From NCBI RefSeq assembly GCF_054482525.1, contig NZ_CM137006.1: a DNA stretch of 64,000 bases, one strand, 5' to 3'. Position numbers and translations under genes: made by a program. Shown here piece by piece: positions 2,151-8,820 of the stretch. The first letter of the stretch is position 1; each line of letters begins with the position of its first letter. Under the pieces are notes generated by a model. It was not told where the DNA came from. It made no database searches and saw only the letters and a list, made by a program, of their open reading frames with translations.

Positions 2151-2717
2151 TTATTTGACCAGCTCAGGTGTTACCTGACTCACCGCATTGGTGTAGTAAG
2201 GCGCGCCCCAGCCCGGTTCCGGCCAGAATGCACCATAGCCGTAATCCCACAGGTTATAGGTGGTATTAACCACTTCTCTCAAATGCCACACCTGGATGCC
2301 CTGCATATTCACTTCGAGGAAGTTATACGGGACTTTATTGATAAAGCCAGGTTGTTCACCCTGAATGGTACCGAGGATGGTAACAAAGTGATTACGATAG
2401 TTCACTGGATCAAGGAAGCCGCTTTGTCTGGCGAGCAGTCGGCCCTGATAGTTGGCTTCAATATCAGGCTTCGCATAGCTATCCAACGGTAATACAGCGA
2501 TTTCTAACAACGTATCCGTTTTGCCATTGATAACGTTGATAACCTTCCCACCAAAGCGCGCTTGTTGACCAACATATAACCCCGGCTGGTTATGAACAGC
2601 AACAAAACTTTTTTGAATATCAGGTTGGTTATTGCCTTTGATATTTTGCGGAATTGAACTACATGCGGCAAGCAAAAATGAAAGGCTGAGGATGAGTGCA
2701 CCTTTTGTCATGTTCAT
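2151..2717 (-). CDS. slp: Outer membrane lipoprotein Slp
   Basis: Start refined to MNMTKGALILSLSFLLAACSS (lipobox LAAC), giving 188 aa; the track ORF has an 11-residue N-terminal extension. Confidence 0.9.
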   Translation of the reverse strand: MNMTKGALILSLSFLLAACSSIPQNIKGNNQPDIQKSFVAVHNQPGLYVGQQARFGGKVINVINGKTDTLLEIAVLPLDSYAKPDIEANYQGRLLARQSGFLDPVNYRNHFVTILGTIQGEQPGFINKVPYNFLEVNMQGIQVWHLREVVNTTYNLWDYGYGAFWPEPGWGAPYYTNAVSQVTPELVK

Positions 2718-2960
2718 GTTACTATCCTTATCAACAAATATTAAAACCATAATAGATATTTCTTTATAGTTTTCATCTGATTCTGAGGCGATATGCCTGA
2801 TAGTAACGTAAACCTGTCTGATGTTTATATCCCTCTGTTTAGTTTAATTCTGTTAATTTTGGGGCGTGACATGAGTATCCATCGCCCCATAAAATAGCCT
2901 TTTTTTAAAGGTACATAAAATCTATTTTATTCAATGATTATAAAGCGCTAATGTTCAATA

Positions 2961-4184
2961 TTATGGGATTATATTCTGGTAATGATTTGATAAGCGAATT
3001 CTTTTGCCAGTTGGTATTTCTATTTCCACCCCATAATTTATAGTTTTTTCATCAGGTAGCGATCTCTTTAAATAAGGTGCGCATGACATTTTTTTTGGGT
3101 TAAGCGTCTCGCGTTGAAATACTTCGAATTGATATTCAGACATTTCTGCCCATGTTTGAATTTTATTGTATCGGGAGAGTGTCGTAAAGGCTTTAACTTG
3201 CTTATAACATTGTTTTTTGAATTCTTGCTGATATTTTAATATGTCATTGTATGAAATATTGGTTATCCTGGCCTCTAAGAATTTAATTATTGTCGAAGCA
3301 ATTTCCGCTTTTGCTCGTAAAAAGTTGTCATTAATGGTTAATAATGTTGAAAATAAACCTTCGATTTGTTTGTCAAGATATTGATCGTCTTTATATAATT
3401 TTGGGGTAGGGTGTTCTTTATGTGAAAAAATAGTGTCACCTAAATTTGCGTCAGTGAAATTTATATTAAGTAGATCTTCGAAATAAAACCTTGACAAGGT
3501 TAGAACGAACCCGGACAGGTTCTGTCCTGTCATATTGAAATCAATAAAGTTGGTTCCGGCAAAGACTTTCATCCTGTTTTTATTTTCACTGTGCTTAATA
3601 TATAACTTCGTCATTTTTTGATACAGGTTTTGAATATCTTTTATATTAGTCGGTAAGTCAGCCTGTTGTTCAGCAATAAAATTAGTATCTGAAAACATGG
3701 TTTGGACACTGAATCTTACTGGTATTCCCTCTTCTACGCTAATTTTAGTTATGATTGCCTTGTCGGGTTTAGGATTAGCGACAACAATGATTCGACATTC
3801 AGCACTTTTGTTTTTTTCGTATCTAATGTTATTAATCTGATTAAGTATTGATTGTGTCTGTTGCGTAAGTGGTGTCGAACTTATCGTTTCAATGTTAGTA
3901 ATAAGACTTACAAGTTGAGCCACAACTTTTGAGTAGTCTGCATTTGTATATGTAGTGTTCGTGTGGCACGCATTAATTTGTTGGAGTTGTTGTTGCGCTA
4001 AATCAAATTGTTCAGCGTTATATCCTTCTTCAGACAATGAAAAATTAATGGGTTGCTGTTCTTCCTGATTATCACAAGGCCACATCGGTGTGTCTGGTGT
4101 TTTAACATTGTCGGTATCTGTTGTGCGGTTATAAATATCGCCGTGATATGTATTTATCATACCTGGGGTAAAGTCAATTGACAT
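2961..4184 (-). CDS. yhiS: Uncharacterised AT-rich protein, YhiS-like (intact 407 aa), with a possible pentapeptide-repeat segment
   Basis: Long ORF in a strongly AT-rich block; RBS AAGGA 5 nt upstream of the ATG; position corresponds to yhiS between slp and ars; central segment [42 protein letters not shown] resembles A(D/N)LXX repeats. Confidence 0.6.
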
Positions 4185-4763
4185 AACATTCCTTATTGTT
4201 CATCTATTTCGCTAAATTTTTTAAATCGGAGAATTAGAGCAGGAATGGATTTTCTTCTACGCGGAAATAAACACAATGCGTCATATCTTCCTGATATAAT
4301 TACCTTTAACTTCCCTTTCATTTCCACCCGGTAATATTTGTGTATAAAAAAAGGGCAGTGATAGTATCGTAAAGGAAAACGTTAACAACTATCAAAAAGC
4401 GCTCATTTTAAAAAGTTATGATGTTCTCCGATAGTGTGTGAAGTGATATTTTTGTGATGTTTTAGATGTGTAATAATGAACCAGGTTAAAGTGTATTTAA
4501 AAATGTGTTGTATTGGCGACTGAAATCTGCCCTTTAAAAGGGGGGATAGCACTGAAACAAAGAGACATTGCTTCTCCGATAAAATGTCAGAGAAGCATGA
4601 TTGCGTGGTGATTGTCGATTGATGACTTACTGACGGATCCGTCATCATTCTCAAAGCATTAGTTAAGTTATTTGTGATTTTTAAGGATTATCCTACCTAT
4701 GATTTTCTACTCAGAAGGATAAGGCACTCACAATGCTCCTTATAGTTTACTGCTGGCATCTAT

Positions 4764-5765
4764 TTAAAATAGCATTTGAGTCAAATAGCCCATCAAGATA
4801 GCCATACCTAAGATAACCGTCAGGAATGCAACTATCATCGGTATTCTGAACATTGATTTAAGTAATATCACTTCCGTCAGGCTTGCGCCGGCACTGCCGA
4901 TGATTAATGCCATTAATGCTCCCAGACCCATTCCTTTTGTCATCAGAACAGATGCCAGAGGGATAACCGCCTCTGCCCGGATATACAGCGGAATACCGAC
5001 AACGGCGCTCAATGGGATGGCGAAGGGATTATCTGCCCCTGCATGAGCGGCAATCCACTCTGAGGGAATAAAGCCATAAATAAAAGAGCCTATTAATACC
5101 CCTAACAAAAGATATGGCAGTACATCTTTAAACTGTTGCAACGCATCTTTGGTGGCTAGTTTTATGGGATTAATACTTACCACAGCTTTGGTACTGCAAC
5201 AGTTTACTACAGGTTTCTCAATGGCTTTAGCCGCTGGACTACAGCAACTCACTTTTATTGGCGTATATGTCGTCCCCGGCGAAGTTTTGGCTGGAGCACA
5301 ACAATTTGCTGATGAGCTTTTACTGGCAATGATATGACGTTCAAATCCCAGGGAATCCAGGATAATACTGGCAAGTACGGAGACGCCGGCGGCGATAATC
5401 GCGTACAACAAGGTAACTTTCCAGCCAAAGGTCACCCACATTAACCCGACGATAATGGGATTAAGTAATGGGGAAACAAATAAAAAAGTGAGGGTCGGGC
5501 CGAACCCGGCTTTCGCTGACAACAATCCACGTAACATTGGGATTGTCGAGCAACTACAGAACGGGGTAACGGCTCCCAACAGAGCCGCCAGGAGATAGCC
5601 TCTCCCTTTTCTGGCCCCCATCATCTGCTGGATTTTATGGTCTGGCACCTTTTGTCTTATCAGGCTCACACCGGCACTAATCACTATAAACAGCAAGGAA
5701 AGCTCGACGGCGAGAAACACAAACATCTCTGCGGCATCTTGCAGCATCGCAAGCCAACTACTCAT
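4764..5765 (-). CDS. ArsP-like (DUF318/YraQ-type) permease with a TPFCSCS motif; putative organoarsenical efflux permease
   Basis: Multi-TM protein with GAVTPFCSCSTIPMLRGL (motif at 5547-5567) and a loop with three vicinal Cys pairs (NCCAPA, VSCCSP, VNCCST; 5196-5303); start refined to the ATG at 5765 (GAGG 6 nt upstream); divergent from an ArsR-family gene. Confidence 0.65.
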   Translation of the reverse strand: MSSWLAMLQDAAEMFVFLAVELSLLFIVISAGVSLIRQKVPDHKIQQMMGARKGRGYLLAALLGAVTPFCSCSTIPMLRGLLSAKAGFGPTLTFLFVSPLLNPIIVGLMWVTFGWKVTLLYAIIAAGVSVLASIILDSLGFERHIIASKSSSANCCAPAKTSPGTTYTPIKVSCCSPAAKAIEKPVVNCCSTKAVVSINPIKLATKDALQQFKDVLPYLLLGVLIGSFIYGFIPSEWIAAHAGADNPFAIPLSAVVGIPLYIRAEAVIPLASVLMTKGMGLGALMALIIGSAGASLTEVILLKSMFRIPMIVAFLTVILGMAILMGYLTQMLF

Positions 5766-5788
5766 ACGTAACCTCATTGAATAAATCT

Positions 5789-5847
5789 ATATTTCCAGAA
5801 TAATCGAAATAAAATTCAGATCAAGATATTTCTGGTATTATCGAAAT
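5789..5847. promoter_or_regulatory. Two palindromic operator-like repeats in the divergent promoter between the permease and ArsR-family genes
   Basis: ATATTTCCAGAATAATCGAAAT (5789-5810) and ATATTTCTGGTATTATCGAAAT (5826-5847); each is ATTTC-N10-GAAAT. Confidence 0.4.
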
Positions 5848-5872
5848 ATCAACCAGACAAAGGGGGTGTCAT

Positions 5873-6193
5873 ATGCAGTTGGAAGAAGTTGCTAAAGCGC
5901 TGAAAGAGCTAGGTCACCCGACCCGTTTGTTCATATTCAAACACCTGGTCAAAGCGGGGGAACAAGGCTTGCCGGTCGGTGAGTTGCAAAAGCAGCTTGG
6001 GATACCCGGCTCTACACTCAGTCACCATATCTCAGCACTGGTATCGGTAGGGCTGGTCAAACAAAACCGTGAGAGTCGAACGCTGATGTGTGTTTCGCAA
6101 TACGCAATGCTGGAAGCGATAATTGAATTCTTACGCGAGGAGTGCTGCGTAAATAGCAAAACACATGGCGAAGGGGCCACGAAGAACAAATAA
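5873..6193 (+). CDS. ArsR/SmtB-family metalloregulator with C-terminal vicinal cysteines (Cys91-Cys92)
   Basis: 106 aa; HTH region GELQKQLGIPGSTLSHHISALVSVGLV; lacks the ELCVCDL-type site of canonical ArsR but has REECCVNS near the C-terminus; divergent from the permease. Confidence 0.7.
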   Translation: MQLEEVAKALKELGHPTRLFIFKHLVKAGEQGLPVGELQKQLGIPGSTLSHHISALVSVGLVKQNRESRTLMCVSQYAMLEAIIEFLREECCVNSKTHGEGATKNK

Positions 6194-8349: not shown

Positions 8350-8500
8350 ATTGCGCTCCTGATTGTTGCAGGTAGTGTCTCTCTTCGAAGCGGATAAGTC
8401 AAAAATATATATGGTTTAACGAATGTGTATGTGCAGAGGAAGGTAATAGGTGTGAATTTTGAGTTGGCTATTTATTTGAAAGGAGGTCTGAATCAGGACG

Positions 8501-8586
8501 TAAAAAAACCGACTTTGCGTCGGTTTTTTACTTTCCAGCCCTGAGTTGGTGGCTCTGGCCGGAGTGAGAATGCCCACATCTAACGG
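8501..8586 (-). ncRNA. agrB: Antisense sRNA of the dinQ locus, copy proximal to arsR (agrB-like)
   Basis: About 90 bp repeat unit; 33 nt (GCTCTGGCCGGAGTGAGAATGCCCACATCTAAC) identical to a segment of the dinQ leader at 8986-9018; ends in an intrinsic terminator (stem CCGAC/GTCGG flanked by A7/T6); agrA/agrB assignment from recalled K-12 order. Confidence 0.5.
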
Positions 8587-8734
8587 TTCAATACTATTAG
8601 CCAGTGGCTAACATTGCAAGCGTTAGCGATTTCTTCAGCTGGCGAAGGGACAGTTTGCTATACATGTTGGTGAAAGAGGATTTATATACTTTCATCGGGT
8701 CGCTGCCGTACCAGGCCTTGTCCGAATCCGGACG

Positions 8735-8820
8735 TAAAAAAACCGACTTCGCGTCGGTTTTTTACTTTGCAGCCCAGAGTTGGTGGCTCTGGCTGGAGTG
8801 AGAATGCCATCATCTAACGC
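8735..8820 (-). ncRNA. agrA: Antisense sRNA of the dinQ locus, second copy (agrA-like)
   Basis: Second copy 234 bp from the first, with several mismatches to dinQ in the complementary segment; same terminator structure. Confidence 0.5.

Follow-up and report, generated by a model that had tools for sequence, protein, structure and literature searches.

The 64,000 nt of Escherichia coli DNA analysed here (contig NZ_CM137006.1 of NCBI RefSeq assembly GCF_054482525.1; the whole stretch is called the window) contain an intact, full-length copy of yhiS (b3504, UniProt P37635). This gene figures in the literature only as an uncharacterised pseudogene disrupted by an insertion sequence (IS) (PMC8170033, PMC6928379), and papers that name yhiS or b3504 do so incidentally. 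Our overall reading, to which we assign a probability of about 0.6, is that yhiS is an E. coli-specific, foreign-looking intact gene, that its product is a soluble protein with a constrained, pentapeptide-like core, and that this protein has a conditionally useful role in binding or as a scaffold. As an object the gene is not new, being catalogued as "hypothetical protein" in thousands of genomes. The analysis contributes a correction of its annotation, statistical evidence for a cryptic repeat core and a picture of how the locus has evolved.

In the ORF listing of the window the gene is a single open reading frame (ORF) that starts with ATG and encodes 407 amino acids (aa); inside it, the listing shows nothing as long as 50 aa on the opposite strand. 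Its basic features are the following.

2961..4184, minus strand: yhiS coding sequence (CDS), full-length 407-aa allele, stop included
4190..4194, minus strand: Shine-Dalgarno sequence AAGGA, 5 nt ahead of the ATG, in the context TAAGGAATGTT followed by ATG
3439..3443 (CDS nt 742-746), minus strand: TTAGG, position of the IS5 insertion in K-12 and its target duplication, located by blastn of the K-12 fragments 1-746 and 742-1224

The CDS call draws on the ORF itself, a 100% match to the chromosome of E. coli PCN033, synteny, identity to the K-12 fragments, a frame common to deeply diverged alleles, the ratio of nonsynonymous to synonymous substitution rates (dN/dS) and a neutral simulation. The same start is annotated by the NCBI Prokaryotic Genome Annotation Pipeline (PGAP) in other strains. 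GC content is 34.1% in the CDS (30.6% at third codon positions) and 31-35% in the flanking spacers, against 51.6% in the whole window. Computed from composition (about 7% stops per random codon), the chance of 407 open codons at 34% GC is approximately 1e-13. In PCN033 the gene is flanked on one side by slp (2151-2750, minus strand), dctR and chuS, and on the other by genes for an ArsP-type permease and an ArsR-like regulator, followed by arsC-arsB-arsR. An earlier note on this DNA, which had reported a 407-aa ORF with a good ribosome-binding site in an AT-rich block between slp and the ars region, is thus confirmed; it gave no strand, which is minus.

According to the same note, K-12 carries a yhiS pseudogene disrupted by IS5 at this place. 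Synteny, fragment identity and in-silico excision all bear this out. In K-12 BW25113, yhiS lies between arsC and slp and is split by IS5, and the position arsC-yhiS-slp, together with the orientation of slp, is the same in PCN033, K-12, O157:H7 and other annotated strains. The suggested alignment to the K-12 fragments covers the entire length of the window copy without gaps, with 95.6% nucleotide identity over CDS nt 1-746 and 94.6% over nt 742-1224. When IS5 and one duplicated TTAGG are removed in silico from the K-12 sequence, an open 407-aa frame results. Among UniRef entries, a 76% identical allele is named "YhiS". K-12 and PCN033 therefore carry the same gene in the same ars/slp position, uninterrupted in PCN033 and split in K-12; the two strains also differ in the ArsP-type permease/ArsR-like pair between arsC and yhiS, which is absent from K-12. 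The IS5 copy in K-12 yhiS occupies a TTAG-type target.

The copy was taken for intact by the earlier note, and comparison with other strains agrees with it. The 407-aa frame is common to PCN033, nine other checked strains, in which PGAP annotates it as intact, and alleles down to 62% identity; all nine of the 1224-nt copies checked in these other strains are open. RefSeq nevertheless flags PCN033 yhiS (PPECC33_RS19075, window 3068-4184) as a "frameshifted" pseudogene ending at 3068. We reject this reading. The 371-aa O157:H7 protein (WP_001303709.1), which PGAP accepts, is itself the product of a -1 poly-A frameshift at CDS nt ~1090, and the flag arises because this truncated form is used as the reference. 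What the truncated form lacks is the following segment.

2964..3071, minus strand: conserved C-terminal tail, residues 372-407, missing from the 371-aa O157:H7 form

This tail hardly varies among 13 alleles, of which one is the 62% allele, and all 93 full-length sequences have its residue H401. PGAP marks the K-12 yhiS fragments as "frameshifted" too, a systematic annotation artefact for this gene.

Further, we estimated selection on the intact frame. Eight alleles were aligned by codon, and dN/dS was calculated pairwise and in 30-codon windows. Pairwise values over the whole gene are 0.25-0.60; in windows the ratio never exceeds 0.8, with the lowest values (0.19-0.31) over residues 177-300 and the highest, up to 0.8, in residues 327-371. 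Window-level positive selection was rejected, as the ratio does not rise above 1 in any 30-codon window. To simulate neutral change, the observed substitution spectrum was applied at random to PCN033 yhiS at the observed distances to two intact alleles: with 181 substitutions 0.14% of runs retained an open frame, with 282 none of 5000 did. Real intact alleles that are 181-282 substitutions apart keep the same frame of 407-410 codons, and indels among them are in-frame only. As the frame is far more durable than in the simulation and dN/dS lies below 1, intact yhiS alleles are kept by purifying selection, albeit weak by E. coli standards.

Searches for relatives of YhiS gave little. Neither the query nor 13 alleles matched anything in Pfam, even at E<=10; NCBIfam yielded only noise far below cut-offs, PHROGs only noise at E>0.04, and the defence-protein models of PADLOC-DB no family for three alleles at E<=1. 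A phmmer search against 1.84 billion representative proteins returned one full-length cluster, its own fragments and one outside protein (P0158, E 5e-4). Profile search of 5.8e9 proteins recovered 136 proteins, all labelled E. coli or Shigella. In scans of 100,044 species-representative genomes, neither peptide patterns nor the back-translated invariant motif had a match; the genome that represents E. coli evidently lacks the gene or the motifs. No yhiS copy was found by tblastn in phages, and tblastn against plasmids hit only three chromosomes of 4.8-4.9 Mb filed as plasmids. As judged from these searches, yhiS is a stand-alone gene restricted to E. coli and Shigella. Its AT-rich composition makes it look foreign.

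The single structural hint lies in the middle of the protein.

3420..3569, minus strand: ten consecutive degenerate pentapeptide repeats, residues 206-255

The earlier note had pointed to a possible pentapeptide-repeat segment, quoting a peptide that corresponds to residues 212-253. As to the PENTAPEPTIDE question, the repeat idea is weakly to moderately supported for residues 206-255. Phe, Leu or Met recurs with a spacing of five residues over ten successive positions (208-253), whereas none of 20,000 shuffles reaches ten (shuffle maximum 7, expected number 1.7e-6). At other periods from 2 to 8 the run of these residues is never longer than three. The period-5 positions are conserved in all alleles, and the segment falls in the stretch of lowest dN/dS. 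With the register fixed, the non-centre positions agree with the consensus [STAV][DN]x[STR][G] in 18 of 40 cases, a score reached by 4 of 5000 shuffles. By position, the consensus is enriched at i-1 (6/10, P=0.001), i+1 (5/10, P=0.02) and i+2 (3/10, P=0.002).

Remote similarity points in the same direction. Profile search of the PDB at E<=10 retrieved two chains only, 2f3l (E 0.014) and 3n90 (E 0.34), both of them pentapeptide-repeat proteins aligned on residues 203-254. The outside protein P0158, 803 aa long, is a PEP-CTERM protein packed with Pentapeptide domains according to Pfam, and hhalign of a profile of its five tandem modules against YhiS 204-255 gave a probability of 74.7% and E 2.6e-5. 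Like the pentapeptide repeat proteins of the PF00805 clan (e.g. Rfr32, 2f3l, and the thylakoid protein TL15, 3n90), YhiS thus shows period-5 F/L/M over ten repeats, enrichment of D/N at i-1, of S/T/R at i+1 and of G at i+2, and remote matches in register. Unlike them, it fails the Pfam models, would comprise only about 2.5 coils, has a bulky or charged i-2 position and is otherwise a unique protein of 407 aa.

Several results weigh against the repeat interpretation. The Pfam search that the earlier note proposed turned out negative, the pentapeptide models (PF00805, PF13599, PF13576) matching none of the 13 alleles even at E<=10. Agreement at i-2 is only 4/10 (P=0.18), this position often being bulky (F, F, I, K, Q, E) rather than small. 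When P0158 was used as a single sequence, hhalign gave a probability of only 8%. AlphaFold2 models are of low confidence, with a mean predicted local distance difference test score (pLDDT) of 34.5 for the full length with 13 alleles and 44.9 for residues 178-407 with 9 alleles; the segment is drawn as mixed strand and helix in the first run and as helix in the second, not as beta-helix.

The segment could instead be built differently, for instance from short amphipathic elements within a novel fold, in which case the weak matches come down to likeness in composition and periodicity only. The negative Pfam result, the AlphaFold2 models, the off-consensus i-2 position, the small number of repeats and the marginal E-values of the remote matches (0.014, 0.34 and 5e-4) would all suit this alternative. 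A period of five, however, corresponds neither to alpha-helix nor to beta-strand amphipathicity, and no other period from 2 to 8 shows a comparable run; three further positions are each consensus-enriched; all remote matches, obtained in three different searches, are pentapeptide proteins in the same register; and the AlphaFold2 confidence is too low to be informative. We consider the alternative possible but doubtful. On balance, residues 206-255 probably form approximately 2.5 coils of a pentapeptide-type beta-helix. The segment noticed earlier thus stands on period-5 statistics, PDB matches, P0158 and the profile-profile comparison, and falls short at Pfam. The YhiS core is a degenerate outlier rather than a demonstrable member of the Pfam pentapeptide family. 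Qnr, MfpA and McbG are pentapeptide repeat proteins as well; the repeat of YhiS would be too short for DNA mimicry as in Qnr or MfpA.

The locus differs from its surroundings also in diversity, and this extends to the spacer upstream of the gene.

4185..4763, minus strand: AT-rich upstream spacer, 34.9% GC, part of the hypervariable cassette

Compared with the strain that has the 62% allele (L008, a Logan ERR7420778 contig), yhiS plus spacer shows 20-26% nucleotide divergence, and no more than ~200 bp past the yhiS stop codon the value has dropped to 0-1%, in slp and dctR; gor and the ars genes diverge by 4-7%. The spacer 4185..4763 diverges by 20-24% from that of the strain carrying P0118, the same level as the CDS. 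In the same strain pairs, yhiS has dS 0.05-0.62 and dN 0.03-0.21 versus dS 0.01-0.06 and dN ~0 in slp, and dS is 0-0.13 in dctR, 0.03-0.11 in chuS and 0-0.29 in arsC. Inside the gene, blocks at 0% divergence between alleles are interspersed with blocks at ~20%, so intragenic recombination among deep haplotypes has occurred; at 12% aa distance there are at least six allele classes. We conclude that yhiS and its spacer make up a hypervariable cassette of mosaic structure with sharp limits. The alternating 0%/20% blocks and the abrupt boundary at slp led us to reject a mutation rate that is uniformly high as the source of this diversity. Simple tracking of the genome-wide phylogeny is already contradicted by allele divergence that exceeds that of the flanks.

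Some further observations concern the same strains. The Slp protein WP_001057453.1 is identical in PCN033, UPEC69, O104:H21, O157:H7, SMN013SH2 and KE26, strains in which YhiS differs widely or is disrupted. L008, 4-7% from PCN033 over gor-arsRBC and nearly identical in slp/dctR, either has a chromosome that is mosaic around the locus or comes from a divergent Escherichia lineage that carries the label E. coli. Beyond the window start, divergence between PCN033 and L008 peaks again in the chuA-chuT spacer (10-18%), the other chu genes differing by 0-4%. The first 200 nt of chuS show 7-8% divergence in three strain comparisons.

Besides being diverse, yhiS is often lost. At least nine independent inactivating lesions were counted across lineages. 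Three short runs are involved, identified from the indel table and, for the first two, from the alignment.

3424..3430 (CDS nt 755-761), minus strand: T6C run, with the C (1 nt, nt 761) deleted in seven sampled strains
3089..3096 (CDS nt 1089-1096), minus strand: A8 homopolymer, site of the -1 frameshift giving the 371-aa O157:H7 form
3811..3817 (CDS nt 368-374), minus strand: A7 homopolymer with insertions in isolate 12 (+1) and APEC O78 (+3)

The deletion of nt 761 is found in O104:H21, O111:H8, O121, A5, AR_0374, 2013C-3033 and APEC O78. These homopolymers (A8, A7, T6) are clearly mutational hot spots and the sites of most frameshifts, though they are short for classical phase variation. 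Other lesions comprise a 14-nt deletion, a nonsense codon and a second 1-nt deletion as secondary lesions, a large deletion after which a B2 strain retains ~126 codons, and insertions of IS5 (K-12), ISKpn26 with a deletion, and IS1. The ISKpn26 element, of the IS5 family, is found in strain 102651 (L021) together with loss of nt 447-681; IS1A lies within yhiS in strains 81 and SCU-172 (H24/H90), and IS insertion sites differ between strains. This AT-rich gene, bound by H-NS, seems to be hit by IS elements repeatedly.

A survey of 5426 complete genomes found a match to the CDS in 4433, ~18% being without it. Out of 60 evenly spaced members of the 4433, the 1224-nt length is preserved in 31, broken by frame-breaking length changes in 23, and 6 copies are IS-split or partial. 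Taken together, these proportions suggest that yhiS is intact in roughly 40% of sequenced genomes, a rough figure, as the database is a non-random sample of E. coli.

Such losses raise the question of whether the frame is a decaying, functionless relic that has so far stayed open in PCN033 by luck, its period-5 pattern being a fossil. Apart from the lesions, the half or so of matching genomes that preserve the length and the ~18% without the CDS, this would be in line with pairwise dN/dS values that are high for E. coli (up to 0.8 in residues 327-371), with coverage of the K-12 locus by H-NS and StpA, with the absence of any effect of K-12 yhiS deletion and of the ASKA clone on the chlorhexidine minimum inhibitory concentration (PMC8170033), and with the pseudogene label in RefSeq. 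That label is the truncated-reference artefact described above, however, and neutral decay would have closed the frame in more than 99.8% of simulated runs at distances over which real alleles keep it. Moreover, dN/dS is below 1 everywhere and 0.19-0.3 over residues 177-300, the C-terminal tail is near-invariant and indels among intact alleles are all in frame. A relic is thus improbable, and we favour a gene under weak purifying selection.

Some points nonetheless count against our overall reading, mostly as regards function. Loss in roughly half of the genomes implies that any function is dispensable. Diversifying selection is not shown, since no 30-codon window exceeds a dN/dS of 1, and the high diversity could equally reflect imported alleles and relaxed constraint. 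H-NS binding, finally, is documented for K-12 and not for PCN033.

What is known of regulation comes from K-12. The arsC/yhiS spacer and the insH/slp region belong to 78 H-NS-bound "promoter islands" tied to predicted foreign genes (PMC3661553), and yhiS is named among high-affinity StpA sites (bioRxiv 10.64898/2026.02.10.705075). YdeO overexpression leaves yhiS expression unchanged (PMC4222967). Since H-NS and StpA cover the K-12 locus, yhiS is probably silenced by them and silent under laboratory conditions. The window locus resembles the promoter islands of Panyukov and Ozoline (2013, PMC3661553) in AT-rich composition. Unlike them, it has no excess of promoter-like sites in a consensus scan (12 vs 9.1 +/- 3.2 in shuffles), in addition to the restriction of documented H-NS binding to K-12. 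The yhiS promoter presumably lies in the spacer 4185..4763. Approximately 170 nt 3' of the permease stop, this spacer contains a terminator-like hairpin (4569-4597, minus strand) with an 11-bp stem and a T-rich tail, the only one in the region; following the permease gene as it does, it suggests that yhiS is probably transcribed from a separate promoter within the ~380 nt of spacer that are left.

The earlier note also saw features of secreted or effector-like proteins in YhiS, an idea that found no support. In its explicit form, YhiS would be a substrate of a type III secretion system (T3SS), with a polar N-terminal signal addressing it to the system of the locus of enterocyte effacement (LEE) or to E. 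coli type III secretion system 2 (ETT2), and a repeat module that binds a host protein. Pentapeptide repeats do occur in the effectors PipB2, EspX and SopA. With Salmonella PipB/PipB2, the E. coli EspX family and the beta-helix domain of SopA/NleL, YhiS shares an AT-rich, foreign look, a repeat module within an otherwise unique, lineage-specific protein, and a polar N-terminus, which is Ser/Thr/Asn/Pro-rich, free of Leu and modelled without secondary structure (pLDDT 23-35, very low confidence); high allelic diversity would suit a host-interaction factor. In contrast to these effectors, YhiS is present in most E. coli regardless of pathotype, and resembles no known effector in any sequence search made. 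It has no signal peptide and no transmembrane segment (maximum 19-residue Kyte-Doolittle average 0.99). Its chromosomal position is fixed, the adjoining genes in every strain examined being slp, dctR and ars, with no T3SS, chaperone, prophage or pathogenicity island; the PCN033 neighbourhood is likewise free of T3SS, phage or IS genes, and phages and plasmids carry no copy. The sampled LEE-positive lineages O157:H7, O111:H8 and O121 have frameshifted copies (a small sample), whereas the laboratory strain E. coli B is annotated with an intact 407-aa protein and enterotoxigenic E. coli strains preserve the full 1224-nt length; an orangutan isolate is also intact. We therefore regard a role as T3SS effector as very unlikely.

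A few observations concern neighbouring genes. The two-gene module between arsC and yhiS (window 4764-6193) consists of the ArsP-type permease gene (PF03773) and a divergently transcribed gene for an ArsR/SmtB-like regulator. Of 30 evenly sampled genomes 12 have the module, and it is missing from K-12, O157:H7 and the carrier of the 62% allele; it is a presence/absence polymorphism adjoining the hypervariable cassette. Rfam search of the whole window identified only two RNAs, tandem copies of AgrB antisense RNA (RF02891, 106 and 98 bits) at 8500-8583 and 8734-8817 (minus strand); they lie away from yhiS in the arsR-gor spacer and adjoin the annotated type I toxin gene dinQ. The slp ORF 2151-2750 as listed opens at an upstream ATG (199 aa), while the annotated Slp lipoprotein has 188 aa and starts with MNMTKGALIL.

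We return to yhiS as an intact gene under selection and to what its product might do. The repeats would form ~2.5 coils of a right-handed quadrilateral beta-helix, a rigid interaction scaffold that would be flanked by a helical/beta region on the N-terminal side and a helical one on the C-terminal side. Specificity might be carried by the more variable parts of the protein, approximately residues 126-176 and 327-371. The function would be conditionally useful and often dispensable, most plausibly the binding of a varying partner, which could be a factor of a host, a phage or a competitor. Genes that interact with a changeable partner typically combine deeply diverged mosaic alleles with repeated loss and a sharp edge to the variable cassette, as yhiS does.

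A bolder version would see YhiS as founder of an E. coli-specific family in antagonistic interaction (phage-, competitor- or host-directed), with allele classes that balancing or frequency-dependent selection would maintain and intragenic recombination would reshuffle; the gene would be dropped when it costs more than it brings, and a minimal beta-helix would present variable flanks. We find this unlikely. Cys326 is near-invariant (91 of 93 full-length sequences), and its pairing with His401, in a conserved C-terminal hairpin lost in O157:H7, as a putative catalytic dyad is pure speculation, based on secondary structure of very low confidence.

None of these findings alters a major paradigm. 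yhiS is one of the never-studied "y-genes" of K-12, and has stayed so because the reference strain carries a broken copy. RefSeq flags on full-length alleles, with the truncated O157:H7 form accepted, distort pan-genome and pseudogene counts. The cryptic pentapeptide-like core offers the first structural handle on a true orphan. A divergent cassette, deep mosaic classes, purifying selection and repeated loss are typical of conflict or niche-specific genes, which makes yhiS a good candidate for functional work.

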